A stretch of 64,000 nucleotides of DNA from Ophelia neglecta (taxonomy: Eukaryota), in contig OZ260663.1 in NCBI GenBank assembly GCA_965285935.1, positions 18,042,001 through 18,106,000 on the forward strand, given 5' to 3'. Positions 19,758 to 62,672 of the stretch are shown here, piece after piece (the first letter of the stretch is position 1; every line of letters starts with the position of its first letter). The position numbers were made by a program, and so were the translations under genes. The notes under the pieces were generated by a model that did not search any database, was not told the DNA's origin, and saw only the letters and a program-made list of their open reading frames with translations.

Positions 19758-32555
<12,798 letters not shown>

Positions 32556-33187
32556 CTTAGTAGTCTGATTCAGTCGATTATAAATTGGTTTTTACCCATA
32601 ACTAGAAAATAAGACCTGGACTTCCTTGGCCGTGTGTAAACTTGTGTTAGCTATATAGGTAGATTCATCCCTGGCTGGCGGTCACACTTAGTTGGCCGCA
32701 CATTTCTATCGAAAGGGTTATTCGTGATAATAACGTAGGCTTCATTTGTAAACAGCGTCTGACTGAATGTCATTTGTGTGTGTCTAAATATCAATGAAGG
32801 AAAGCATGTGCACTGTAAAGCGCTTAATTTTTGTCTGTTTCTTTCGCACAGGTATCTTACTTTAAAATTTCCTCGGCGACACATTCACAACACAGAGCAT
32901 TAACTGTAGTCTGAGGCCGGGTTAATGAGTCATGCACATGTAGCTGATTCATTTTATATTAAATCAAATTGATGTATTCTTGACATTATTATTTTTTTAA
33001 ACAAGAGCGAGTACCCAGCAGTTAAATCAACTTCGTTGATCAAAAGAAGCCTATTCAATCAATCCAAGTTCTCGGAGAATGAACCTCACACAACTAAACT
33101 CCGATTACACAATATTTTTATCAATTCAACTTATTACACGTCTCTGATGTACATAGGTATAATACAAGAACAAGTTCTAGCTATTAC

Positions 33188-37628: not shown

Positions 37629-40600
37629 TCATTTAAAGTTACCATATCGCTCGTTCTTTTTCAAGTAATCCATTGCTAGGGTATGAAGATATTTGTACTG
37701 GCCCTGCAAAATACAAATATCTTATCTAGACAGGCTTTGAATTTTAGGTGGACACGGTTTTAATTAGACTCTCAAAAGGAAAAATGATAGGGAACACCCT
37801 CAGCGTTCTAAACTAATGCGGATAAGGATAATCATGCTAAAAGGATTGATAACTACCATATCTTCGACAAACTGGTGTCTGTGTAGAGCGACAGCCCTGA
37901 CAGCCAGGAAGACGTCCACCTCCCTGTCTGTCTTCATCTTCTCTAGCATATGGTAGGCCGCACACAGCAGCCCACTACGATGGGCTCCGTCTCTAAAGTA
38001 GTAAAATGCCTTAGTTAGAAATAAAACTTATGCATGAAAAACTATTTCAACTTCTTGACAATAGCTAAAATAAGACGAAATAAAGAAAAACTAGCACGAG
38101 TTGGTCTTGTCACCAGCCAAAGAGTTGTTTTTTGACCTTAGGGATGCGTTTAAGTCGGCAGTCAGAATAAATCATGTAGAGTGTGCGAAATAATAATTGT
38201 TTGGCCATCAATGCGATGTCTTTTTATTGTTTTATTGAGACATACAATATTTAAGTACGCCATTCGCTTAAGATCCCCCTCAGAGAAGTGCACACCACAG
38301 GGAAGTTGTATTGTTGTTGTTTGGGGTTTTACGTGATTTTCAACACTTATCGGTCATATCGCCCAATGCCCTCTTTAGAGTGCTGCCTCACTGGAGTACC
38401 TGCTATAGACACCAGACAAGGAACCCCACCTAGTCACATTATACTGACACCGGGTTGACCAGTGCTGAAACTACCCCCGAAATACCGGGCGCCTGGCAGG
38501 GGAGCTATCAGTACCTATTTTTACGTCTTGGGTTTGACGCGATCGGGATTCGATCCCTGATCTACCACTTGCGAGGCGGACAACCTAACCACTCGGCCAC
38601 GCTTTGGTGGGGCAGGTAAGGGAAAGGGAAAGCCTAATCCCAATAAAGCCGGAGAATATTTGTTTCAGGCTAAACCAAATGTAGCTTATACGACAATAAA
38701 ATTCACCGATTACCTGCACAAGACGGTGACCTTTCCATCCTGCTCTTTCTGTTGCCATTTATCAACAACCTCCAGTGTATCGAGCATTTCATCCTTGTCC
38801 GGCAGATCTTGCTCGGATGTCCACTTGTTGAAAAACATCAGACTGACTACCAATGGTTGCTCGTTTGTCTGATACAATTTATAATTATCACTGATTAGTT
38901 TTTATCTTTGAAAAGCTTTTTATGTATAATAATGCTATAAATATCACTCAGTTTTACTTAAATATATACCCTACCTTAGAGGTGTGAGTCACAGAAAATG
39001 TGAGTCTATCTAGGGATCTCTCTGTCCCTTGTGCAGCAATAGACTTGATTTCCAAGACTTCAAATGAAAGGACTCTGTCTTTTTCATCAGGCCAAAACTG
39101 AGGGCAATCCTAAGGGACGGACAAACGTATATGCTACACGTATAATTATATTGGCGGTTGTTAGGAATCTCTAATGCACGATCGTATCACCGTCTGGACG
39201 GTATATCTGGAAACACTGTCTTCTGTTATCAGCCTTGTCAAACTATGCAATAAATAGCTACCTCTGAAGGCGCCTCTAGAACAAACACTGTGTGACACTT
39301 ATGTTGGTATACCATTCTCCAGAAGTCTACAACCGTGTCAGGTAAAGGCAGCTGGCTGACGATGAACGCTTTCTCCTTCAGGTAACTCTGGGAAGGATGT
39401 ACAAACAGGTCAATGCTTCTCTTTAACCATCAGCTCCCCAATGCTCAGCTTACCCAACTGTATTCACTAACATAATGGTGTGAGGCGAACTCATTTGCAT
39501 TAACAGGACTTTGAATTGACTGACTCACTGTACAGTTGTATTTCACGTACTTAATTCACATTGTGGTCTAATTCGCTGATTTAATCAGACACTGTACCAC
39601 TGCCGCGGAACGCTTATTTTATATATCAATATATAAGTTTTACAATAATAGTCGTTTTATACACATACATCAATCAGTATGGCATTAATGTAGTCGTTCC
39701 TGTCCTTAATGCTTCCAGACAGATGTACACGGCGACCATCCTCTATGAAACAACATTAACAAGGTAATAAAGGGAACTATAAACTCTACAAGCTACATAT
39801 CAAAATCATCTTTAGTTTTTTGCCTGCTTTGCACCTCTGAGTTATCGTAAATGTAAATAAAACATTATATCAACTTATGATTAAGTCCTTACCTGGTACA
39901 ATATCCAGGTTCCTGTTCTTATTAGCGTTTTTAGCCCTCAATCCTGATTGGGCACCGGGCGCCTTGCGTCTTTTAAACCTTGTTAGAGTCTGTATATAAT
40001 GTGCATGAAATAAACATGCTATGGTTGGTCTATCGTCGAAAAGTTTATGGTAATACGGTAGCTGTTGCCATGTTATGTACATTTTCGTCTAAACCCGGCG
40101 TAAATTTTACTATTTAGTGAACACGTAGCAAATCAACCAACTTTCATAGTTATTACTATCTTAATTATATAGATACACCATACAACTATAAAATCATTAA
40201 CATATTTTAGATGAAGCTGTGTTATAATTTATTTTGCAATAACAGGTAAGTGTTGCAGACCTGATATTGTTCTTCAATTGGTGTTTCGTTGCAGTATTCA
40301 TTGCCACTAAGGAGGACCCCATACCTCTCTGAGAACAAAGTACACGGGATGGCTGTGTCACCCTGCTGGTGCGCCTCTAGCAGAACTTCGTGTAAAAATA
40401 CATACTGTGGCTGAAATAAAATGCATCCGTAAGTGGAATATTACAATGGCCAATGTTTGTAATTATATATGTTTGACGTAATTCTTTCCGACTTTGAATA
40501 TATCATCTACCAGCGTTTGGATCATTCTCATCCTCTCCTTCCTCATACGGGTCAGTTGCTTTACTACGTCGAGCTTGCCCTCCTGTTTAATTTGATCCAG

Positions 40601-43600
40601 TAATGAGTCCAAAGCCACAAAAGTACCAGACCGTCCAACCCCAGCACTGGAAGACATTTATATATATATTTAAAGGCCACCAGTCTCCTTTGCACTAATA
40701 TTTGTGCACCTCGGAATTCAGGGCATTAAATAGACGACCTACCTGCAATGGACGACCATTGGCCCAGTGCTCTCGCGATCAAACGATCTTACTTTTCTCC
40801 TGAATGACAGCAAGGGAAACGCCTCGTCTGGACAGTCTTTATCGGGCCAGGAGAGAAACTGTAAATGCTTAACTTCTCTTGTTTCTTGCTATGGATTTGC
40901 AAAAAGAACATTGACAAATATAAACGTGCAAAACATATTTCCGCGAAAATTAATTTCATATCTTTACCCAGTTTGATGAAGACATTTTACACTAATAACC
41001 TTCATTCATAATTGAATATCATAAAGTAATAAAACCTGTTTCTTCAGCTTGATGATCGTGAGATTGAAGTTTGCGTATTTATCCCTTATTTCAGTCGATA
41101 CAGTAATGTTACCGTAGGTCTGTTCTTCACCAACATCCGTTGGCCAATATTGCTCACACTTTTTCTAAAAAAATGTTTGAAATTTACAATAATTTGCATT
41201 TGGTTTTCGCAAAAAGTATTACCTTCTTTCATGTTAAAAACCTACGTTTTAAACGACTCATGCATGATAACTAAAACCAACTTTATAATTCAGTCTGGTC
41301 TGAAGAATAACTCACCCGCCCTAATTCAAATGTTTGTGTAAGCATTACTATTCTGTTTGAATTAAGTTCCCAAATCATTTTCCAGAAATGAAGAGTTGTG
41401 TTTGGTCTTGGGCCTTTGTGTGAAGCAAAACATATTATATAAAAAATGTAAATAAAGTGTGACTGTAATACAGTATAACGTAAACGACTGCCACTTTTAG
41501 TATAACAAAATATAATCATGTCGTTAGATAGTGTACCTTGAGTTGCCACATAGTGTTTTTCTGTGTTCGGAAATCCCTAGAATAATCAGATATACCATTC
41601 TTCTTTAAGACACAAGTCATGTATTAGTAATATTAGCTAGCCATGTTTTTATGATGAATATTACATCGCTACAATTTAACTGAACTAAAATATCCGAATA
41701 TAGTGTTTATTTGATTTTTTATATTAAGGGGTCGTATTGTGACGTAGTAACGGCTCCTTACAGTAATGTAACTGGCGTTTATATAATCTGCGGAATCAAC
41801 GTCTTCTAATACCACCCTGTTGTTGTCATCTGAAAGATTTTCGACACAATTGTTAATGAAAAACGGTCTTCGTTATTTGCACTAAATTGATGAACAGCAT
41901 TGAGGGTAGAAAACTACATCAATTGCAAAGAGCCTCCCCCCTCCTCGCTAAAGCTAGGGTTTAAGTTCGGTTTATTTGATATTTGGAGAGCGAGCTGTTA
42001 AGGAATTAGGTGAAATGGAATGTGTAACAAATTTGATTTGATACTTACAAGGTTTGATATTTTTAAACCTATTCTTATCAACGTTGTCCTTCAACCCACC
42101 AATTTTATAATTTGTACCGATTACCTCTGGAATTTCCTAGATTGAAAGGAGGCGAGATCATTTATTATTTAAGTGTGCTATTTTAATATCAAGTTGTTAA
42201 CCAATACCAATGAAGCATGCATGAATTCTCGGATTGGAGTTGGCTACCGGAATCCATATCAATGCACCACTCCTACCTCAAATTCCTTTTTAAATCCATT
42301 CCTTGTAAACTTCTTTGCACCAATGTATTGCTCAAGGTCCTCAACCCTTACGTAAGTGCCGGCCAAAACAAAGTCAGCGGCCGGAAAAGTGACGTACGCA
42401 GTCTGATCGAGTTCGGGTTTTTCGGATGCCTTTTCGGAAACCAGTCCTGTCACCGGTTTCTTTGGTATAGTGGGTTTTGTTGTGGGTGATATTTTCGAAA
42501 CGATACCTGTCGTCGGTTTCTGTGGTACGGATGGCTTTTTCGTGGCTGTTATTCCGTGAATGGTTGTTAACATTAAAACGGTGAATAAAAAATAACATTC
42601 AAACGGTGAATATTTAAACAAATGATGTTTAAAAGTGTGGAAAAAACCCGAAAATCTGTGTATATTTGCACATAGCTGACATTTTTATCATTTATGAATA
42701 TGAATACATTGGACCTTTATGTTTACCTCTGTTGGGTGCATCCGATTTCGGATTTGCTGGCTGCTCTGCGTCACGTTGTTGGTTATTGACATCATTTTGA
42801 GTTGAGTTATTACTCGTATATGAATCTGCAATTAAAGCATCATGTGTCCTGAAAGAAGGTATTTTTGCATATAATGAGAAATGACAATGCTATCACAGGG
42901 GACATCAAAACACATTAATACTTCTATTGTGACGAAATGTGTACCCCCGGATATTAATTTCAAACGTATCAGTTGTTCTAACCAAGTAAGTCAGTCTTAT
43001 CTAAGTATGAAATGATTATGACAAACCGTCTCCATCCTTAGCAATAGGATCGGACCTTCCTCTCCTGCAATCATTCGGTGAAATTGAGCGTGAGTACATT
43101 AGATTCAATTGCCAGAAAAAAATACTCGATCATCAGCAGTGTCCACATTCTATGATGAATTAAATTTTGCTTCTTTGGTCACAATTATTTAGTTCTAAGT
43201 AACATGCTCAATAGAAGAGCAAACCGATATGTTAACCTCATTTGCGATAAAAACGGGTTACAGAGGATAAATTTGTCCAATACTGATATCTAAGTATTAG
43301 GAGCACCAATTTCTAAGATATCGCTTTACCTGCATCTGGGAATGAAGACTGCAAGTATGACCACTAGAGCTATGAGGAATATGCCTCCAGACACACAGCC
43401 AGCTATCAGAGGAACATTTTTTGCTGGTTTGTCCGTAGTACTCACTGGAGAAGTTATCATTCTATGAATAATGGTGGAGTGGCACAATATCAATTAGAGA
43501 CACACACTTAATATTAATTATTCTAGACCCATTGACCAGTGTATCAAAGGAGAAGAATCAATTGACTTTCAATTTCACATTACTACACTGAAAAGTATGA

Positions 43601-46600
43601 GATATAGGGGCCTGTGAAGATATACCAATATCAATACTACTTGTAAATGAAAGGACCAATCTATGTAGTGGCTTGATTAGATTGAAATAGAATGTCCCTC
43701 ACGGTATTGCCTGTAAACAAAATACCATGCCTGTATACAGAATTCCAGGTGGGCTTCATTATCAAGTTCCACTATATAAATATTTCGTAGAGGAGGGTGA
43801 GTCTGGTTAATATGCACTCACAATAAAACATGCGAAAATTCCTCATCACGAAATGTAAATGAGCACATTGTATACTTCCAAATTTACCTATTCAAGAGGT
43901 GCCCTTTCTTTAGAGGCGACATTTTTAGTTGCATTGTTGGTCACAAGTATCAGTTTTATTGTACTGCAATTGTTGGAATTTGATGTAACGATCATACGTA
44001 GCAGCTAATGCCGATCAGAAATACATTGACCTCCGCCTTGAGAAGGGTGCTTATTCCTGTAGCTAGTGTGGTAAAAATATAACCACACCATCGGAAACGA
44101 TACTTACTGTCAAGACATATGTAGCTAATATTGCTAATTTAATTGTTCAACAATTATGTCAGGTATAATAAGCAAAATACTTATGTGTATATTAGTTTTG
44201 CAAACTGCAATTAAACTGCATAGAGTGTCGATGACAAGGCTATTACGAATGACTGATCAGTTTTCCTACCACTGAATAGGTTTATTATTTACTAGATACA
44301 ATGGGCTAAATTTGTGAATACACTGCTCAACAATCAAGCTACTGAACCAAGCACTCAATGTGATAGAAAGACACTGTCCTTTACCCAGTGTCCCAAATAA
44401 TTTCTTCCTACTATCTCCCCTTCTATAGAAAAGTCAAATGAAAATTATATTTTGTAACTAACCTGGTATTGCTGTTGTAGTAGCATTTACAACACCTGTT
44501 TTCGTTCTGCTCTCCTCGATACTACCATTAAGATGACGTCTTAATATGACCATTTGAAAATAGTATGTCATGCTTGGTCTGAGTCCTTCAACCAGGACCT
44601 GTCTCTGCCAGAGGAATGTATCGGTCCTAGTTCTCGTGTGTATTAGTAGCGTATCATTATACTCTGATACGTATATTCCTGCTCCATAGCGATGTGTCAA
44701 ATTGGGCAGAATGTTGTCATATTCGTTCCACTTCAGGGTAATGCTGTTGGTTGTCATATTCGTGACTGTTGGTATATGTTCTTGGTCGGATATGACGTCG
44801 ACATACGCTTCGATAAAAACACAAGCCACGTAAAATTCAAGAAAACAAGGTTAACCAAGCGAGTAAATAAAGTTTTATTTTATCATCTTCAGTTCAGTTC
44901 ATCATGAGCGGAATAATACATCTTTTTTGTAGATTATCATTTAATGCCATATAACATCATAGTTTCGGAGTTTGGGCCTCGTTGTCTTACGTATTTCTCC
45001 GTCACATTGCTCCCCGTAGTACCAGGTCTGGTATTGAGGTTCGTTACATCCCGACTTACAGCTCCCGTTGTTATTATGACATACATCTGGGTGGTTGTTT
45101 TGTAAACAGTTCTCACTACAAGAATAGCGACAGTTGTCTCCGTAACGACCAGGTTGACATGCTGATAAAATAATTCAAAACAAAAAAGACATTAAATAAA
45201 AATGTTCCATCGGTGATCATCTGGTTGGGCTAATTGTAGATGTACGATTTTGAGAAGTAAGATAGTTACGTTCGGTACATGCTGGATACAATATTCCAGG
45301 ATTACATCTGCTACAACCAGTAAGGTCGTTACAAGGGTTATGTTGGGGACAGGCAGCGCAGTCTGGAGAGGAACAGAGATGAGCAGTGCTAACAGACGTA
45401 AGAAACAATATCAGTTTTGACGAGAGTGGTTTATAACAAAACCCCGATGCTGCCTTTTATTCTATGTATTCACATGTAGTTTACAATAGTCAGACAGCAT
45501 ATATAATCAAGTGTCACCTCTTCTCTATTCCAATTGCTGTGGATATAACCGTTCTAAAGGTTGATATTTCATATATTGTTTCAATTTTTTTGATCTTTTG
45601 CTCGCCTATACATCTATTTCATATCAAAAGACGAGTAACCCTTTTGTTGCTGAGTGACTAGTCTTAAAATGTAGATAAATACTAGCACCAACGTGGAATT
45701 CATAATAATCTAGCTGTCATTCAATCCGCCAATGTTGCAAGCTGCAAAGAAAATCCAAATGTACCTATTGGTTTATATCCTTGCACGACTGCTTCACAAA
45801 TACTCATATATTCTTTTTCAAATCCGTCGTCATCCCTGAGGATAGAGACGTATCTCCCAGTGACAGGTCTGTCACACACTATGATATCATGACCACCTGC
45901 GGGTACCGGGCCTTCATACTGTTTACATAGCGCAGATTGATACACGTCACTTAAATTTCCTACACCCAAGCGGAATGCACCTAAACGTTCTGGTAAAAAT
46001 ATAGATAGCTTATTATCTGCTATAGGAATTGCAAAAGAATATATTGCATCGTCACTTAATATTCAAACATAGCCATGGGGTCATTAAACTTATTAAAGAT
46101 ATTCATATGGTATGGACATTGTATCTGCTGCAAATATAGTAAAATATATATATTATTCGTTCTATACAACAGTGAATCAAGTTAAGCTATAACAAGGCAC
46201 CTGTGCCAAAAACATATCTGACAATTGAAATGATCATGTTATAACATTCATGTTATTTAATTGTCTTATTTAATCATGCTCTGCTCGACACAATTTTAAT
46301 TTTAAAGACTTACTATATGCCGTATCGGTGTCGAAATATTTATTCCTGTTATAAAGAGTGACACGGACTACTGTGTATTGCTGTCCGAGATCCACGTACC
46401 ACCAGGCTTGCTGAGGCCTAACAAGTAGCTGTGGGTGTGCACAGTGTAGATTATTAGTGCTGATTTCACCATCAACGGCCAGGTTGGCACCTAGCTCACC
46501 ATATGTGTCGCTTTGAAATGCTTGTTTATTGAGAGCGAGGTTTCCTGAAAACAGACTCAGATTGTAATACCAGCTTGGTAATCTTGGTGAATAAATAATA

Positions 46601-49600
46601 TATTTATGATAATGATACTTGTTTCTATAATGGAGATAGAATTATCTTTGCTATATCTAATACCAAAGCGGGAATATCCCACGTCTAAACGAGGATATTG
46701 GGTTTAAATTTGAACGCACCATTAACAGTTATCACTTAACGCGACATGACATTAAATTGTGTCGAGATATCTATTGAAAGAAGGAATGATCCCTTTCACT
46801 TGAAATGTCCATTGGCCTGGTGGCAAAATCAAAAACCTGTAAAGCATTTTTTTTGCGGGTATTTTTTTTTAGAAACTAGCACCCACGGCAGGAAGTCTCT
46901 TTAGGTATATATGGTGCCAAGCTGAAAAATTATTTGACTGGTCAAAATAGCAATTGGCTCCATTATATCAATAAACATTTATATTAGCCATATCTTCTCT
47001 ACTGTAATGGATTATCTTTTTGCAATTCAAAATACCTTTTTGTGCATTTCAGCAAGACTAAACCATAAGTTTCTTTGTATTAAATCAAAATAGTCTAATC
47101 ATTTGTGATTTAAATATGAAAGTCACATATGTGCATGCTTTCTAACACGTCTGAAGCGATTTATACTGCGACATTAAATGTTCCACACATGTAGTAATGA
47201 TATGCACACAATCACTCTGAATAACTGAATAATAAACAGTGTTCGAATAGACGAGTTTTAATCTTAAGCAATTCTTTGTTTCGTAATTTGCTTAGTTCTG
47301 GGATCCTTTAATCCTAGCTTTATTAAGTTACTCTTGTAGCATCCACTTTCAGATTACACATCTATGTCATTTGTACAATACGATATTGGTGGACATAGTA
47401 GGACTATGGTGTTTTGTTTTTGTCTCATATTCTAGTCTGATTATATATAAATATATATACTTTTTAGGACCGCCAACTAGGATGCTTAAGAACCTGGAGA
47501 AGGCACTAATTGACAAACTACCAGCATGATATTTACCAATAAGTACAATAATCGATGTTTGTCTTGTAACCGTAGCCGCCCAAGAAATGCTGCGATATAT
47601 TTGCCCCATTTACACAGCATTTGATCTGTTGTTTATTTAGTTTGTACAATATAAATTGCATACAAATATTAAGGGAACAATATTCAAGATATTAGATGCT
47701 CGTTACCATGGCAAATGGGCATGAATATCTTGCTTAATGGTGAAAAACATCAAGCATGATACATTTGTAATTTTGGTTTATGCTTATCTTATAATTCTGA
47801 GAGGACTAGTATTAATTTAAAATGTGCTTGTTCAGATACCAAGAGAGTACGAGGTGTTGCAGATTGAGGAAAATGTGTATGAGTAGAGTCATTTGTGGAA
47901 TGTTTGTTTTCTAGCTAATGATTTAGGTAAACGGCAGTGTTGTAAATTATTGAAAAGCAATAATTTGTACAACCACACGCATTAGCAAAAAGGAAAAGGA
48001 AATTTTGTATTCGTTATCTTAAGCAAACTAAACTAATTTAGCGCAATAAACCATAATAACTGTCCCGTTACCATGGTAACGAATAGCAAAAATATTTCTC
48101 ATTGCCATAACGATCACTTACCCATCAAAAATAGTGCATCAGATGGAGCGATATTTTTGTTATTAAAACAACTATTTTAGCCAATTTCAATGTTTCCAGA
48201 CACTGGAGATTCTTTTCGGAGGTGTCATTGTATCAATTGAAAGCTCGTTACCAGAGCAACGGGGTATATTGAGGTGCTCATTGTCTCAATCTAACCAATA
48301 CCATTTTGTTTTAACCCATGTCAAGTTTGATGCTTGTATCACACTTTAAATAATTACCCCCGTAGGCCATTTGTGGGAATAATCTGGTCCAATAGCCCTA
48401 CTCGACTAAAATTATGAAAAATCAAACACTGGCAACATTCGTTTTGCCTCTGATGCCAAAAGCCAGGTTATTATCACGTAATTGAGGTATTGTACTTACG
48501 TATATTTTGCCTTGCAACTAATCTACATTATTAATACGCAAGTTACCATTTGCAACCCCGATGTATACCACAAGATTCATTTGATAGACGAAACTGAAAA
48601 AGTTCTCTAAGTTGTGATTGCATCTCTTTCATATAGATATGTTTAGTATTCAAATGAAACCTTAAGTGTTGCCATCTAACGAAGGGGTACAGTTAATCAT
48701 TTAAGACACATGAATGTGCGTTTTTGCTATAAAATAAAGCACAATGCGAAACGTATTAAATGAACGCAATTTTTATCCATTGGCATTATTTGGATATGAT
48801 TATGCACACATGTCCGGTCATTTAAATTTATTCCGAGAATATAAATGGTCCAATTAAAGTAAGGGTACTATTATTGTGTTTCCCGTGTTTTAAAGGTTAT
48901 GAACACATGTAAAGATGTTTAAAAAAATGAAGGAGTGTAGCTCTGGGCCCAAATCTCCTATTGTATAAACAATGGGGCCATTTTGACTTAATGAAACATT
49001 ACAATGTGAAGTCATCGGCGTCATGTTACTCTCCGCACCTTATTTACCCTCTGTAGAAGTTTAATTAACTGAACAAAACGAATATGGGCAATGCAATATG
49101 GTAACAACACAATGCTATCTGGCATAATGGCGGCGCAATTTCATCATTACATAATACATTTGTCAGCATTTTAGTAACACAATGAAGCTGGACTTGTAAT
49201 ATTATTTGTATAGCCATATATCCTGCAATCGGTGCCATTCAAAGGGTTAAAGCGCCGAAGAAATCTATGGAAACATTACGTTATTTCCCTGGGGGTTCAC
49301 TCAAGGTCGAATACAGTGATCTAATTCAAATAACCATCTATGCACACACATGCACTCGTTTTATATATCTTTAACAACTGGTGGTCTCAGCGGGGTTAGA
49401 ACTCACTACCCTTGGTTCTCCAGCCAACAGCTTTACCAAGTTTGCCAAAGGGGTAACCCCTCTAGCCATGCTAGTAGGAGTGTGGTGTATCATGGTTGAG
49501 TGACCATGATCTGCCCATATATCTCAGTTACCACCGCATATTCGGTCAAATATTTCAAAACGTCGGGTTGCAAAAGTCAATCAGCTTAATTAAACATTTA

Positions 49601-50484
49601 AAATTAGACATAAAACCAAAACCCCACAAATTGTTTATTATTCAGTGTATTTTATATACAGCAAACAGATAAATTATCTGCAATCAATGGCGATTTTTTC
49701 TTAATAAACATATTGCAATACCAGTGATGGAATTGAGAGATTTGTTCACACAGCGCTTAAATATGGGGAGCGATATGGTGCCAGTATTCGATTTTTAGTA
49801 GGCGGTGTAGTAAACAGCCTATTTTCTCTGCGAAACAATTATGTTGTATGTGACAAATTTTATATTTGAACGTTTGTCAAAAGTAAATTCAATGTTATTT
49901 CGGAGTTCATATTGAATGTTTTCCAGGAATATTGGGGGAAATGACTTCATTGGCCTTAAAAATTCAAACATATTAAGTCATCCTCCTCACCTATTTTACA
50001 CCCTGGTCCTGATCTCCGTATGCCGGCCTCAGTTGGGTTGTCAAATGGACACTCTTCCCCTTGTAGACAATTACCGGACGTCTGGTTACAGCCATTGGTA
50101 CACGGACATGGAAATACGCATCCTGGATCATTTCCGAACCGGCATAATTCTGTCAGAAATCATGATACAAGGATTGGGTTAACCGCTAAAAGTCTACCTT
50201 AAGGTTTAGTCTGATCCAATGTGTAGACTGCAATGGGGTCTCGAAAAAGGCTGTTATATTACAATGCTGAAATTCCTCATTACGTCAAGAACGTTAAATC
50301 CGTATATAAGAAGTTCTCTGATTAAACTACATGCATATTAATTACATATAGTTCAGCAAACGTCTTACTCAGATATATAAATATAGAAGACACATTCTTT
50401 GAGATAATACCTACCGTTTTGTGCACCAGCGAAACACAAGACATGTATTCCTACAAATATCACAGATAATTTGAATGCCAACAT
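37629..50484 (-). CDS. Receptor-type protein tyrosine phosphatase, gene B: signal peptide - EGF-like - F-type lectin - EGF-like x2 - FN3 - TM - Pro-rich juxtamembrane - PTP D1 - PTP D2
   Basis: Exons: 50415-50484 (MLAFKLSVIFVGIHVLCFAGAQN), 49991-50149, 46314-46544, 45765-45989, 45270-45362, 44991-45161, 44463-44807 (FN3: SITLKW...LVEGLRPSMTYYFQM), 43330-43444 (TM), two short exons, 42277-42545. The PTP exons have the same boundaries as gene A (KNRF, DYINAS, SWPD, VHC|SAGVGRSG, MIQT; D2 VLCRDGAHRSG). The last exon is GQYKYLHTLAMDYLKKNERYGNFK*, stop at 37629-37631. Confidence 0.91.
38309..38602 (-). mobile_element. tRNA-derived SINE (apparently full length) in an intron of gene B
   Basis: The minus-strand head has an A box (TGGCCGAGTGG) and a B-box-like GATCGAATCCC. 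The central CCGGTGTCAGTATAATGTGAC resembles the Meta-SINE core (from memory). It ends in a (CAA)n tail. Confidence 0.8.
47441..48530. mobile_element. ~1.1-kb segment present in gene B intron but absent from the homologous gene C intron; probable transposon
   Basis: B/C intron homology breaks after TCTAGTCTGA (47440 vs 63493) and resumes near 48540 vs 63505. The segment carries repeated GTTACCATGG(C/T)AA palindromic motifs (~47702, 48067, 48246). Confidence 0.55.
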
Positions 50485-51989
50485 GTCGACCAGTCATAAC
50501 AGTCTTCTGAGTCGTTTAAATCACTGAATGTAATGTGTACCTAGAAAAATAGGAAATCAGTTTACTAGTTCGATTAATTAGACTCTTACCACTTCATTTA
50601 CGGCATTTGTTAATTTATATTACAAATTGGAAACACTCTTTTCTTCAGTGTTCTCATGTTAACATTAAAGACAAGGCTTGCAGGCATTTCGCTGAGTATC
50701 TGTGACCGGCAATGTAAGCATATATTGTGTTAGGTGAAGGGGAACGCATACCTGATTTACATAACTGACATAAAAGTTATTGTGTGTTTGACTTAGTATC
50801 GATTGAATCTAACAACCTTTGCAGTACCAAGATACACGATAAAGCGCAACTTGCCTTGGACAGTAAAGGCGCGAACTTCAAATAAGGCCATACATACATA
50901 GTGTCGACCCATTGTTACACCAGACTACTGTCTTACATATACTGTCTTATACTTGTCCAGTCGATCATGAAAAAACAGTATATCACTAGGAAATGTGCCT
51001 GCTATATGTATTTTTTGTGATGTTTGGCTTATCATTTGACATAGAAAGAAAACCGCACCCCAAATACCCTTGTATGTTAAACAAATCAGTTATGTGGAAC
51101 TCCAAACAAGGAATTTGCTGTGGTTCGTGTTAAAACTAGTTCCTTGGAACCTGTCAGGGGCTTGTCAGTCTCAGTTACTGCCTCTTAGGTCAAACAGAAG
51201 GGAATGCAATTCATGTGGTCTTCATTCTCTATCGTTCCTAATACTATTGCATAAAAAATATTCTCAAAATTTGTGTACCGGGTGAGCTCAGATCTTTAAA
51301 AAGCGCAATTGCAATAATAAGCTTAATCTGGCCGTCAATTAATAAACTGTCATTAGCGGGTTATATACTATTTGGGAGCTGGGGATTGATGTTTGTGGTG
51401 TTGCAGCTGGTAGTTGCCGGTGATTTCACCACTATTTTATTGACTATTCTTGATTAATGATTATACATTGTCTCTGGGCATCGATCCCGTGTTTATGTAC
51501 AGAAGTACCCCTGTTTGCAATATACTACTATTTAACCTTTATATGATTGTATGGGACGCTAAATATTAGATGTGGCAAGCATGCTATCGCATGATCCTTA
51601 TTCACAGTGTTATGAATTTGCCAGCAATTTACGTTTTTAAAAGTTGGTAGGCCTTATCTTGTTGCAGTAAGGGTTTCTAACGATTAGAAATACCGTTTAG
51701 TAGCTCATTCAACTCATCATGGCATACGAATATTACTTTAAGAATTAAATGTCTTGGCTGATATCTACGCTTTTTTTCGATGGCAATTTAAAAAAAAAAA
51801 AAAATAGGTCTGTTAGCATTTCAAAGCTACCACACGCCTAAGGTAACTTAAGCTCGTCCAGTGGCAGCTCTTCATAGAATGTGAAAACATTTTAAAATTA
51901 AAGGTGTATCCCATCGGATACGATATCTTTGCCCTTTGATCGTTTCTCAATCGAAATAAAAAGTTCTGCAAAATATAGATCAGCAAAAA

Positions 51990-55888: not shown

Positions 55889-56280
55889 TACTGTAAAATC
55901 CTTAAATTTCGCGACCCTTTTATTCCGTGAATTGAATGGGCAGAGTCAAAACAGCAAAATTTAAGTGCTCGCGATAATTAAGGACCTTGGAAAGGGTGTT
56001 GACAGTAGCTTTAGAACGCCAAAATAAAGGTAAGCGAAATAAAGTGAAACCTGTAAATAAAGACCACCAAAGGGACTGGAGAATAATGGGTTGATTTTTT
56101 TGAGGTGGTCTGTTTAGACAGGTCATCTTACATTGAAAGTATATAGCATACTCATCATATTGGTGGTCTTAATTGACAGGTAGTCTGATTATAGAGGTGT
56201 TCTTTATGGCAGATTTCACTGTAAGTTGAAGGTCAAACCCACGGATATTTAGGGCCGCGAAATATAAGGGGCTGGAATAG
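55889..56280. mobile_element. Nested MITEs: CAGTGAAACCTG-family copy (56042-56221) inside a TACTGTAAAATCC...CGCGAAA-type element
   Basis: The outer left end TACTGTAAAATCCTTAAATTTCGCGACCCT is mirrored by AGGGCCGCGAAATATAAGGGG on the right. The inner element is ta|AAGTGAAACCTG...CAGATTTCACTG|ta. Confidence 0.6.
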
Positions 56281-59200
56281 GGTCGGATAAATAAATCCTA
56301 AATCGACATCGGGAAAACTTTTAAAATCGAACTTCGTTATATAATTAAGGAACCGAGGTCTGACCAATTTCTAAATTCAGGACTTCAGGACTCGGGGGCT
56401 GGCCATATTCTTGGTGTGGGAGAAGGGGGGGGGGATCAGAAGTTTGTTAAATCTTTGAAGTTATATTAATTTTTCTGATGAAACAGCATTTTGACCATCT
56501 GCTAAATGGCAAGACATTTAGCATGTTGTCAGTGTAGTTACTGAAGTGAGTGAGAGCAGGGAGGGTTTTTGCAAGGAGGAGTGCCCCTGGGGGAAAATAC
56601 CATATTTTACCCGCGCAAATATGATCGAATTTCATTACTTTTTTTTTAGCTAATTGGGGTTATTTGGCTTCTCTCCTTGAAACATTTAATACTTAAGAGT
56701 GAAAATACGAGAAGAGGGGCATCATTTGTCTTTCCTGCCAAATTTAAACAATATTTAAAAAGAGTGTGTTCCCTTTCAGTGTTCAATGGAGGGTCATGTA
56801 CTAAATGTTGTCCTGCCAGATGTTCCACATATGTGAGAGCTCAATTCCTGGTAAATTAAGGGCACAGACATTATTTGAATCACGAGGAGGACAATTTGAA
56901 ATGGATATTTTCCTGGTTCCCAGTGGATACTATTATTCTGTATTGGGTATATATGCAGCTTTTTGTCGTGTGAAAGATATTCAACATGTGAGATTATTAT
57001 GTGCCTCTGGGCATATACTTCAATTGTGAATAAATAATTGAATATATAAATTCCTAAGGATACCTTTACCTATATGATTTTATATATATACCACTACTTC
57101 ACATTCAAAATTGTTTAAACACAACTAACCTCAAGTTATGGTCATAAATTACACTACTAATGTGGCTAAAACTCTTAGACAATAGGCGAATTTATGCTAA
57201 TGAACAACTTTCTACAATATGTGTCTGACCGCTATTGAACTGGGTGAACGTGTGTGTGTTTAGACTCAGTCCTGTGTTTGTCTGGTTTGCTCCCATAGAC
57301 AGACGATAACACAGATGTGGCTAGACTTAATGCTCATTTTTATACGCAAACCCGCAAGCTATTTTCTTTCTGGTATCATTTAACTGGCCTGCTATAAAAA
57401 ATCACTAAACTAGATTGGGAAAATATTACATTTGTACTTTTATTCACTCAGTTTACATCATTTGTGCAAACGTTAGATATCAATGTTGATACAATTTGTG
57501 ATAAGTTGGACTGGTATCCAAATTACAGGCAACAAATATACATCCGTTGCACTAGCGAGGTGGCGAATTCCTCCCGCCCGAGAAGCGGCGGCGATCTCCA
57601 AATTTAGGAATGAAACCGTCATTTTTTCCTACGTTTTGAACTCGGATCGATCTTATACTTTTACACATTATTCAGGTATTTGTTAGGCACACATTAATAA
57701 TAACACGTTATCGTTGTTTATTATTAATTATGAGACATTACCATTAGGAAAGCTTCATTTTACGTGGGCGATAAAACAGCCTAACCACTGAGTGGTGACG
57801 TTAGAGCCTTGGCGAGAGTCCACAAAAGAAGGGGCAGTCTGCTAATGATGAGCCGATTGGTAGTGTTTCCATTTGGTACATACAGTATACGATCTGTACA
57901 TGTTCATTAGTGACGTAAAGCCGGGTGGTACGATTATAATGATTAACCTTTAAATGCACTTACTAATACATATTCCCCCCAAATAGCTAAATTCCAAGAT
58001 TTGACTACAAAAACGTGTATAAAATGTTTATTTTGATCATATTGTTTTTCGAGAAAATTGGATAAATATTGCGTAGCGTGACGAAAGTCGGCAAATACAT
58101 ATCGGCCAGCTTCACAAGCATAAGTAGTATTACCTAGCAGTCTTCTGGTGCCGATCACTGTTATAAAATACACATACTACCCGATAAGACTTAACTGAAT
58201 ATTTTACATACCGTCAAATTATTATCGATTATTAAAGTTGCAATCTATAATAAGAGTAGGAGGAGGGAGGAGGAGGGGGGATGAAAAAGGGAGGGGGGGG
58301 GGGTGCTTTAAGATCTGAAAATAGTCTCGGATGGGTTGTCGAAATCGGTGTATTAACTATAAAAAAAATCAGAGATCTATGGCAGTGCTTAGAAGTGTAT
58401 AAACCTAATGTAGATACATGATTAAATGAAGTCAATATTGGGGTTTCTACTCATGTTAGGCCTGACCATACTGCCTATCAGGCCGACAGAGCCTACCTAC
58501 ACATCTATTTCAGATATATGGTATACTTGGAGAATTTCTTCTCAACCGATCCAACCCCCCCCCCCCCTCCCCAAATGGAGACGTTTAAATTGGCGCTGTG
58601 AGAATTAAATACCCTGTTGTTTGACTCCAAATAAATTAGTGCGACTAGCTGTACAACAATACCACTTGGATAGTCACTATCACTATCCTACAAAGAGCTA
58701 TGATTTTTTTCGATCAAAATATCATTTGGAAACTCTTGTTGTACAAAGAGTTTTGTGCTTTTTTTTACCAAGACATGAGGGCCATTATACCGGGTTACAT
58801 TGAAAAGCTGAAGAGCCAACGGGAATTTTTGTATGTTTTCTGGTCTCCGTCTGTCCCTGTCAGTAGCTTTTGGTTGTCTGACCGACTATGGGCGGATCTG
58901 ATCACATGTATCTTTAATAGGTATCAGTCATTTGATATTTAATAATCACCATTGGCGTCGTCGAGATAAAGTAGTTGTAGCCTATAAATTTGTAAAACAG
59001 GAACTAGTACTAAAGTTTGCATTGTGTATTATTAAACCCTTTATGTATTGAAGGGCCTCATTGGCCCTGGCAAGGTTAATATCCATGTACCATTGATCGG
59101 TCATTTGTACATCAAATACTGACGACCTTATGAAAACTATTTTTCGTCAAATGATCAGGAGTATCACATTTGGTGTTGAACATTTATTATTATGAAATTA

Positions 59201-59764: not shown

Positions 59765-62672
59765 TTAGCTTTGTTTGACCTTTTTATCATCGACTTGACG
59801 CAGATTTATCTCTTCATAAACCCCAGCTGCCTGGAGTCCAGCGTACACGTGTACGTTAGGAGTGTCTGCTCTTTCATTCCCTAAATAATAAATACAGCAA
59901 ATTTTAAAGGTTTATCATTTAAACAAGAGAAACCTTTCGAAAGAGCATACTTTCCCTTACATTATATCATAATTTGAATTAAACGTATTGGGTATGAACT
60001 TGTCCGAACAGACAATGTAGAATAAATTCACCGTAAATATTGGCTGTATTAGGCGTATCATATGTTACATGCTCCTGGTTTGATTGAAGGTAACTAACGT
60101 CTTCTTCAGGTAAAGTGTCCTGGTTTGATATATTTCCTTCATTTTCCTTGTTCATTTGCAGATTTTTTTTCCTTGATCCCCTCAATCTGTAGGATATTGG
60201 CTTTAATTAAGCACGTTTTTCGATGTTATGTGAAAACCATATACACCAATGCCTGCAGTATGCCTATGAACGTTAGCTTGGAGTACATGACTCCGATATT
60301 TTGACAAACACGTTAAAGGTCTTTCTAGGTAAATGTTGCTTTAAAATGTTCATTGAACTGCAATTGATATAAAACATGTTCGTACCTAAGGAGTAATATC
60401 ACTACAGTTATACCGAGAGCCAGGAAGAGCACACCGCCAACAACACTGCTGATTATCAGTGTAATGACTCTGTCATCGTTTGATGTGGATTCTGCCGTGA
60501 AAATGCTTGGTATCAATAATTATCAATTTTCGTTTGTTTTTATTCCATCGTTCACTGAATAGTTTGAACTTTGATACTTAGATCAGTCTGTTAATGTATA
60601 ACATACTTACCTGGTATCGATGATGTAATGGCATTTCCCACACTTGTTTTCGTTCTGCTCTCCTCGATCGTACCATTAAGATGACGTCTTAATATGACCA
60701 TTATAAAATAGTATGTGATGCTTGGTCTGAGTCCTTCAACCAGGACTTGTATCTGCCAGGGGAATGTGTCAATCCTAGGTCTCGTGTGTATTAGTAGCGT
60801 ATCATTATACTCCGATACGTATATTCCTGCTCCATAACGATGTGTCAAATTGGGCAGAATGGTGTCATATTCTTTCCACTTCAGAGTTATGCTGTTGGTT
60901 GTTGTGCGGTCGACTATTGGTATATGTTCTTGGTGGGACATTACGTCGACATACGCTTCGATAAAACACAAGCCATGTTAATTTCATATAGAAAGTAAGC
61001 TTTACCAAGAGAGTAATTGAGATTAAGTCTTATTTAATCATCTTAAGTTTAGTTTATCATGAGCACAATAACATTTTTTTTTTAGATTATCATTTAGCGC
61101 CATTTCACATCATCGTTTTGAAGTTTGGACCTCCTCGTTGACTTACGTATTTCTCCGTCACATTGCTCCCCGTAGTACCAGGTCTGGTATTGAGGTTCGT
61201 TACATCCCGACTTACAGTTCCCGTTGTTATTATGACATACATCTGGGTAGTTGATTTGTAAACAGTTCTCATTACAGGAATATCGACAGTTGTCTCCGTA
61301 CCGACCAGGTTGACATGCTGATAAAATAAAACAAATCAAAATAGACATTAAATGAATGTTCCATCGGCGATAATCTGGTTGGGCTAATTGTAGAACTACG
61401 ATTTTGAGAAGTAAGATAGTTACATTCGGTACATGCTGGGTACAATACTCCCGGATTACATCTGCTACAACCGGTAAGGTCATTACAAAGAACAAGAGCG
61501 GGACAGGCAGAGCAGTCTGAAGAAGAATAGAGGGAAGCAGTGCCAACAATCCCCAGAAAACAATATCAGTTTTGACTTTATTTGTTTATAACAAAGCTTT
61601 TATTCTGATATTTATCCCATTTGTAGCTTTCAATAGTCAGCCGGCATAAACAATCAAGTTATTCAAGTGTCATATTTTCTCTGCCAATTACTGTGGATAT
61701 AATGTTACTAAAGGTTGAAATTGCACATATTGTTAATTGTTTTGATCTTTTGCTGGCATGTACAAAAGACGAGTAACCCTTTTGTGGCTGAGTGTTAAGT
61801 CTTAAAATGTAGATTAATACTGGCATCAAAGTGGAATCCATATTAATCTAGCTGTCAATCAATCCGCCAAATGTTGCAAACTGCAAAGAAAATCCAAATG
61901 TACCTATTGGTTTATATCCTTGCACGACTGCCTCACAAATAGTCATATATTGTTTTTCAAATCCGTCGGCATCCCTCAGGATAGAGACGTATCTCCCAGT
62001 GACAGGTCTGTCACACACTATGATATCATGACCAGCTGCGGGTACCGGGCCTTCATACTGTTTACAGAGCGCAGATTGATACACGTCACTTAAGTTTCCT
62101 ACACCCAAGCGGAATCCACCTAAACGTTCTGGTAAAAATAAAGATAACTTATAATCTGCTATAAGAATAGGAAACTTATATATCGTCCATTAATGTTCAA
62201 ACATAGTCATGGGGTCATTAAACTAAGATATTTATTTGGTATGGACATTGTCTCTGCTGCAAATATGTCTATAGCAAAACATATATATGTGTCGTTCTAT
62301 AAAACAGAGACTAAAATTAAGCTATAACAAGGCACCTGCGCCAAAAACTTATCTGGCAATTGAAATGTTCATATTATAAATTCATGTTATTTAATTATTC
62401 AATCATGCTCTGTTCGACACTATTTCAATTTTAAGACCTACTATATGCTGGATCGCTGTCGAAATTTTTCTCCCTGTTATAAAGAGTGACACGGACTACT
62501 GTGTATTCCTCCCCGAGATCCACATACCACCAAGCTCGCCGTGATTCATCCAGTAGCCCTTGGTGTGCACATTTGAGATTATCAGTGGTGATTAAACCAT
62601 CAACGGCCAGGTAGGCTCCCAACACACCAAGTGTGTCACTTTGAGATGCTTGTTTATTGAGAGCGAGGTTTC
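59765..62672 (-). CDS. Gene C (5' exons beyond window): F-type lectin - EGF-like x2 - FN3 - TM - short tyrosine-motif tail, no phosphatase domain
   Basis: Exons 62442-62672, 61904-62128, 61424-61516, 61147-61317, 60611-60955 (same sizes as gene B: 231, 225, 93, 171, 345 nt), then 60386-60491 (TM), 60032-60186 and 59765-59880 (stop TAA). All are GT-AG and phase-consistent. Tail: RLRGSRKKNLQMNKENEGNISNQDTLPEEDVSYLQSNQEHVTYDTPNTANIYGNERADTPNVHVYAGLQAAGVYEEINLRQVDDKKVKQS*. Confidence 0.88.

Follow-up and report, generated by a model that had tools for sequence, protein, structure and literature searches.

Clusters of lectin-EGF receptors with two kinds of tail have been described in the snail Biomphalaria. 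LG5R encodes scavenger class F-like lectin-EGF receptors with either a short tail (1B) or tandem PTP (phosphatase) domains (1C) (PMC13712769), and SudRes1 holds MEGF/GBD receptor PTPs (RPTPs) (PMC12297450). Both loci have been linked to parasite resistance (PMC13712769, PMC12297450). For the short LG5R tails, no identifiable signature is reported (PMC13712769). In the main texts of the two articles the term ITAM is absent, and in the passages compared "paired" is used only for sequencing reads; the terms ITIM, decoy and activating are absent from the text of PMC13712769. In vertebrates, paired receptors have been defined, together with a conversion model, for CEACAM1/CEACAM3 and the Xenopus Ceacams, and CEACAM3-type receptors bear an ITAM-like motif of their own, often joined by YxN in Xenopus (PMC5112662).

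The window analysed here is a 64,000-nucleotide stretch from Ophelia neglecta, an animal with an intron-containing genome of 762 Mb. It contains gene C, a predicted receptor with a tyrosine-rich tail, and the neighbouring genes A and B, which encode tandem PTP domains (Table 1). As in the published accounts of LG5R and SudRes1, the genes encode clustered single-pass receptors that combine a galactose-binding/fucolectin domain and EGF domains with a short tail or tandem PTP domains, but an FN3 exon and a tail with four defined tyrosine motifs are additional features of the Ophelia cluster genes. With the CEACAMs and Siglec-5/14 and 11/16, as described, they have in common a single cluster, near-identical ligand-binding exons that are held alike by recombination, and different tails. 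However, the vertebrate paired receptors have Ig folds and the gene C family is lectin-EGF-FN3, without homology between them; the vertebrate inhibitory arm relies on an ITIM-recruited phosphatase, whose place would be taken by a catalytic RPTP in the gene C family; and the vertebrate ITAM-like spacer is 6-8 residues, compared to 5 in gene C. With these differences, the gene C family is best read as working like paired receptors.

Hydractinia Alr and Botryllus FcoR are likewise invertebrate multigene receptor clusters split by tail motifs (10.1101/2022.03.25.485889; PMC12582321), but they belong to the IgSF and have ITIM, ITAM or hemITAM tails, and a catalytic phosphatase arm is not mentioned in the available text of these sources. 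The earlier note compared the gene C tail to that of Draper/MEGF10. This comparison holds as a working analogy, since Draper, MEGF10 and CED-1 are also EGF-containing single-pass receptors with an adaptor-free tyrosine tail, and the genome contains Src42A-, Shark- and Syk-like genes. The tail of these receptors is, however, defined by NPxY plus ITAM/YxxL (PMC8092387), and NPxY was found in none of the 27 tails of the cluster to which gene C belongs. Moreover, gene C has no canonical ITAM, has a lectin and an FN3 domain, and is part of large multigene clusters. Draper, MEGF10 and CED-1 are described with an N-terminal EMI domain and a long EGF array; gene C has one N-terminal Cys-rich exon, the lectin and two EGF-like exons. 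Membership of gene C in the Draper/MEGF10 family was ruled out by the missing NPxY and the lectin-EGF-FN3 ectodomain.

Lectin searches of databases returned distant matches only, and 9 of 141 proteins of at least 150 aa had a TM or PTP call. Among these comparisons, the bivalve protein P0065 (Saccostrea 'MEGF10') combines lectin-EGF-TM with a 44-aa YENE/YQEL tail without the x5 tandem motif, and P0085 (Ylistrum 'RPTP kappa-like', from a scallop) combines lectin-EGF-TM with tandem PTP domains; both are distant from gene C (35% identity over the lectin exon) and come from different species. No database homologs of the FN3 exon or of the N-terminal exon profile were found. A pairing of RPTPs with tyrosine tails, or an ITAM with a five-residue spacer, was not encountered in the titles and the beginnings of abstracts of the openly accessible literature.

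Structure of gene C and its predicted tail

The features of gene C and its neighbours are collected in Table 1. The lectin of gene C is fucolectin-like and galactose-binding-like (30.7 bits against PF22633, cut-off 27.8). F-type (fucose-binding) lectins bind sugar through the motif H..RxDxxxxR; in gene C, REK stands where RxD is expected. The signal exon and the N-terminal Cys-rich exon are located just past the end of the window, and the copy of the latter in gene A gave no match in a Pfam search. The signal exon and promoter region of gene C are tandemly duplicated (equivalents of window 65389 and 68014). The FN3-like exon of gene C itself had no Pfam match, and a relative in a second cluster on C7 matches fn3 at E 9e-10.

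Table 1. Positions in the window of the exons of gene C and of the neighbouring genes.
Feature	Position	Strand	Description
Gene C last exon	59765-59880	minus	tandem motif YAGL-x5-YEEI, then the stop codon
Gene C tail exon 1	60032-60186	minus	basic juxtamembrane stretch, YLQS, YDTP, Tyr of the junction YGNE
Gene C transmembrane (TM) exon	60386-60491	minus	hydrophobic segment, uncharged
Gene C FN3-like exon	60611-60955	minus	DNA homology of genes B and C ends at its donor site
Gene C two EGF-like exons	61424-61516, 61147-61317 (61147-61516)	minus	Cys pattern and splice sites by eye
Gene C F5/8-type lectin domain, two exons	62442-62672, 61904-62128	minus	PF22633
Gene B	37630-50500	minus	gene C-like ectodomain, other TM, tandem PTP domains
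Gene A	19900-32560	minus	lectin/EGF/TM/tandem-PTP paralog without FN3

AG/GT borders flank the TM exon and both tail exons, and their phases (1-2-1) are compatible. The splicing of gene C is predicted from the sequence and conserved splice sites; in three sequencing runs, which behave as genomic DNA contigs of one sample, no tail splice junction was seen among 15 of 32 joints. In addition, the reading frames of genes B and C were checked by eye, one exon at a time. The predicted tail is 89 aa long, with five tyrosines inside 45 residues in the motifs YLQS, YDTP, YGNE, YAGL and YEEI, as the earlier note had reported. Its other observations on the sequence were also borne out: YGNE is formed over a splice junction, where a 151-nt intron splits the Gly codon, the tail contains the internal repeat xDTPN, no charged residue falls within the hydrophobic TM stretch, and the spacer from YAGL to YEEI is five residues. 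With this spacer instead of x6-8(12), the motif was ruled out as a canonical ITAM. In most subfamily-I paralogs the stop codon is reached five codons later.

Five tyrosines in 89 aa are unremarkable (binomial P 0.13-0.20), and tyrosine density was dropped as evidence for a docking array. Out of 200,000 shuffles, 250 gave YEEI by chance and 750 gave two YxxL/I together with YxN and YxxP, in both cases with motifs picked after sight. The conservation of the motifs is stronger evidence for the array in the gene C tail than these chance statistics.

Conservation of the tail in two clusters

In searches of the organism's own genome, every match to the tail fell in C5:16.6-19.0 Mb. The cluster at C5:16.59-18.99 Mb (2.4 Mb) holds 27 tyrosine-tail loci, including gene C, and 21 RPTP loci, together with one unclassified gene and one lone EGF exon. 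This catalogue was drawn from 60 stretches, the loci of the genome searches and the window, and covers ∼612 kb of sequence from the region. Stops or frameshifts were observed in scored exons of 5/27 tyrosine-tail and 3/21 PTP loci, and one further tail is truncated. At C5:18849637 a gene has a PTP-type TM exon, but neither kind of tail was found between this exon and the gene that follows, and C5:16.72-16.77 Mb is a near-identical inverted duplication with PTP and tyrosine-tail genes plus an extra tail-only copy.

Conservation among homologs had been named beforehand as a check on the proposed compact SH2 docking array. Four of the five tyrosines are kept across the 27 paralogs, and YLQS, present in only 4/27 tails, proved incidental. 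Y[DE]T[PH] and the junction-spanning YxN occur in all 27 tails (the latter as YGNE in 25 and YENV in 2), YEEI in 26 and YAGL in 22, with the tyrosine of YAGL kept in 26. Both terminal tyrosines, nine residues apart, are found in 25/27 tails, and a strict YxxL/I-x5-YxxL/I in 21/27. When the four tail subfamilies were compared, the motif columns were 78-98% identical and the other columns 35-58%; dN/dS was 0.23 for the tyrosine core and 0.39 for the linker. The Leu at +5 after YEEI is invariant, and one subfamily terminates two or three residues beyond the motif. It is concluded that the four-tyrosine tail is real and conserved among paralogs, which supports the prediction that the gene C tail is a phosphotyrosine docking array. 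A canonical ITAM was found in 6/27 tails only (subfamily III, through an extra C-terminal tyrosine), the ITSM pattern (TxYxx[VI]) in 3/27 and the ITIM pattern ([ILVS]xYxx[ILV]) in 1/27, and none of the three in gene C.

A second cluster lies on another chromosome, at C7:87-93.6 Mb, with matches also on contig C16. The lectin-exon search was scored for the best 150 of 436 candidates and the PTP-exon search for the best 150 of 305. The 54 C7 lectin loci that were read comprise 18 PTP, 24 tyrosine-tail and 12 unclassified loci. The spacer is 5 in 23 of the 24 tyrosine tails, mostly as YEQL-x5-Y[ED][ED]I; the filter allowed 3-8 but favours the motif found, and the 12 unclassified loci may differ. 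The five-residue spacer is a trait fixed in both clusters and not the mark of a decayed ITAM. The three C7 tails for which the middle exon was recovered have Y[DE]T[PA] and the junction YxN, in the same phases as in C5. With one C7 last exon as query, 57 matches were obtained, of which 34 were strong. As the C7 tails were not detected by tblastn with the C5 tails, the case for a common origin is built on exon phases and the order of the motifs. The lectin/PTP array on contig C16 resembles C7:90-91 Mb, with some scores equal, and may be an alternative haplotype. PTP catalytic exons form additional, very large arrays at C5:95.8-98.8 Mb and 103.8-104.6 Mb.

Ectodomains common to tyrosine-tail and phosphatase receptors

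The earlier note lacked the main point, namely that the tail sits on ectodomains that are also borne by receptor phosphatases. Gene B has a TM segment and tandem PTP domains, of which D1 contains the WPD, HCSAGxGR and Q-loop signatures of an RPTP (WPD, VHC|SAGVGR and MIQT, with KNRF replacing KNRY; motifs seen in single exons), and it is presumed to represent the phosphatase partner type. Genes B and C are 84% identical across 2.3 kb, introns included. Upstream, the homology takes in ∼9 kb before the signal exon, with 88-94% in the longest blocks there and 81-94% over the main blocks of upstream region and ectodomain, and stops at the FN3 donor, beyond which TM and tail are unlike; a DNA match between the two TM exons was not found. 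Gene A has a lectin that is 96.2% identical to that of a tyrosine-tail gene elsewhere in the C5 cluster. A 333-bp inverted repeat with arms 97% identical lies within a gene A intron (window 27875-28683), and high-copy interspersed repeats are located between genes B and C (window 56040-56223 and 57980-58190).

That gene C is only the 5' half of an RPTP was ruled out, as no PTP exon was found between its stop and the first exon of gene B; this possibility is also countered by the stop 0-17 residues past YEEI in the YEEI-keeping paralogs. A derivation of the tail from a truncated juxtamembrane region of the cluster RPTPs was likewise ruled out, because no match was obtained (best E 0.37).

A lectin DNA tree was calculated for the 40 C5 genes with both lectin exons (19 tyrosine-tail, 21 PTP), leaving out eight tyrosine-tail loci that lack a lectin exon in the DNA read, and the unclassified gene. 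The tail label changed 14 times on this tree versus 13.6 when shuffled, with 354 of 500 shuffles as low. Six of eight lectin clades were mixed in tail type, the nearest neighbour of 17/40 lectins had the other tail type, and monophyly of the tyrosine-tail lectins was rejected (p-AU 1e-101). Each of the 19 scored tyrosine-tail lectins is matched by that of a PTP gene at ≥90% DNA identity (best 99.5%), and 17/21 PTP lectins have a tyrosine-tail partner; identity between lectin clades is 57-75%. Two singleton clades each consist of one PTP gene and one subfamily-IV tail. The C7 lectin tree (42 genes) was mildly clustered, with 11 changes versus 13.9 shuffled (34/500 as low), of which at least 6 are forced by starred branches. 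On the C5 FN3 tree, 6 changes of the tail label were counted. Among the scored subfamily-I tails, the lectin of 8/12 belongs to a clade that elsewhere goes with a different FN3 type or with no FN3 type, compared to 1/6 PTP genes on the subfamily-I FN3 backbone with a foreign lectin, although these counts are of non-independent events.

No domain-wide positive selection was found on the lectin exons (pN/pS 0.59 (0.40-0.83) and 0.53), in which changes are concentrated in two loops; constraint on the PTP catalytic exon is much stronger (0.11). Of the features by which paired receptors are defined, very similar ligand-binding domains with different tails were thus found in one cluster, and recombination or conversion of the ligand-binding exons is indicated by the chimeric lectin/FN3 clades and the AU test.

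Candidate readers of the tail and the paired-receptor reading

Because the tyrosine-tail and phosphatase genes share the lectin-type outer part, they are likely on/off receptor pairs. With moderate confidence, gene C is read as the likely activating arm of a paired-receptor family, in which RPTPs with the same outer domains are the presumed inhibitory arm; the paired receptors probably serve immunity. Of the earlier suggestion of an adaptor-independent activating tail, adaptor independence is probable, as the TM segment has no charged residue, and the activating reading is the more likely one, with likely signaling of the Src/Syk type. Src-family SH2 domains bind pYEEI optimally, Grb2 binds pYxN, and pYDxP suits SH2 domains of the Nck/Crk type. 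Upon clustering of the gene C receptor by ligand, a Src-family kinase would phosphorylate the tail, after which the terminal YxxL-x5-Y[ED][ED]I pair may recruit Syk/Shark or Src SH2 domains, YxN may recruit Grb2 and Y[DE]TP Nck/Crk-type adaptors, and these readers would drive uptake or activation. An RPTP sibling that binds this ligand would produce local phosphatase activity and damp the signal, and recombination would keep copying lectin modules between the two types. As the spacer is one residue under the ITAM definition, binding by tandem SH2 domains is not assured.

Candidate readers were sought with an SH2 search that gave 86 matches, a subset of which was read across 44 stretches (two without an SH2 match); kinase, phosphatase and adaptor names were assigned from domain order and known motifs. 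A Shark-like SH2-ANK-SH2-kinase was found at C8:29.35 Mb as a single open frame of 695 aa, apparently intronless, as well as Syk-, Src42- (Src42A-), Csk- and Nck-like genes. Src-family kinases form a tandem array at C5:3.28-3.61 Mb with kinase exons in five copies, and SHP2/Corkscrew-like genes (SH2-SH2-PTP) form one at C2:96.40-96.66 Mb. In most copies of the Src-family array the first SH2 exon is duplicated ∼2.5 kb apart, one SHP2-like copy has HCSDG in the catalytic loop, the Csk-like gene (C8:14.98 Mb) has two near-copies of an SH2 exon, and C12:55.50-55.53 Mb holds an array of single-exon SH2 matches within long open frames.

The mixing of tail types on the lectin tree fits both pairing and neutral unequal crossing-over, so that the tree alone does not tell the two apart. 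It is conceivable, although unlikely, that both tails signal for real but independently, and that recombination in a tandem array has led to shared lectins as a side effect, without on/off pairing. The C5 lectin-tree label that is no different from shuffled, the linkage to tail type that grows towards the tail (the FN3 tree), as distance-dependent crossing-over predicts, and the lack of domain-wide positive selection on the lectin exons all agree with such shuffling. It does not readily account for the foreign lectins being found mainly on tyrosine-tail backbones, for the PTP twins of all scored tyrosine-tail lectins when 4/21 PTP lectins are without a tyrosine-tail twin, or for the same mix recurring in the C7 cluster. 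The direction of the effect may also differ, since RPTPs can activate, not inhibit, Src kinases (CD45-like). Tyrosine motifs and PTP domains are not mutually exclusive everywhere either, because the scallop RPTP P0085 has its own Tyr-rich juxtamembrane region.

The tail could instead be inhibitory or mixed and recruit SHP2 (or Csk), so that the phosphatase would be built in on one form and recruited on the other, which is considered distinctly unlikely. SHP2 ligands have features like those of YAGL and YEEINL, and the Ala at +1 in YAGL and the invariant Leu fit this resemblance, as does the SHP2-like tandem array with its eight N-SH2-type matches (C2:96.40-96.64 Mb), but the Src-family genes are tandemly expanded too. 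The rarity of the ITIM pattern in the C5 tails, the acidic C7 tails (YEQL/YEEI/YEDI) and the 9-residue distance between the tyrosines, which is short for the tandem SH2 domains of SHP2, point away from SHP2. Hydractinia Alr tails are described as similarly ambiguous (10.1101/2022.03.25.485889). It is very improbable that the tyrosine-tail proteins are co-receptors or substrates of the RPTPs, as heterodimers or scaffolds, or that the motifs are mainly endocytic in a scavenger-type receptor. YxxL/I motifs also act as endocytic signals (PMC5112662), similar snail proteins are annotated as scavenger class F-like (PMC13712769), and the upstream DNA common to genes B and C suggests co-expression; the YxN and YxxP motifs, the acidic +1/+2 residues and the fixed spacing, however, exceed what endocytosis needs.

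For the paired-receptor reading, a wider version is put forward tentatively. It describes a lophotrochozoan system of ∼100 genes or more, with inhibitors that have a built-in phosphatase and activators that have the x5 ITAM variant, in which activating tails would repeatedly receive lectin copies that serve as decoys, and expansion of the SHP2 and Src families would have gone along with this; the same design could underlie the LG5R/SudRes1 schistosome-resistance loci of Biomphalaria. The snail clusters of lectin/EGF RPTPs are linked to parasite resistance, and descriptions of their short-tailed siblings name no cytoplasmic signature that can be recognised. The conserved tail of four tyrosines, on ectodomains shared with phosphatases, offers a testable on/off model of kinase versus built-in phosphatase. 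If this model is true, it would extend the logic of paired receptors to an ITIM-free design and would define a short-spacer variant of the ITAM.
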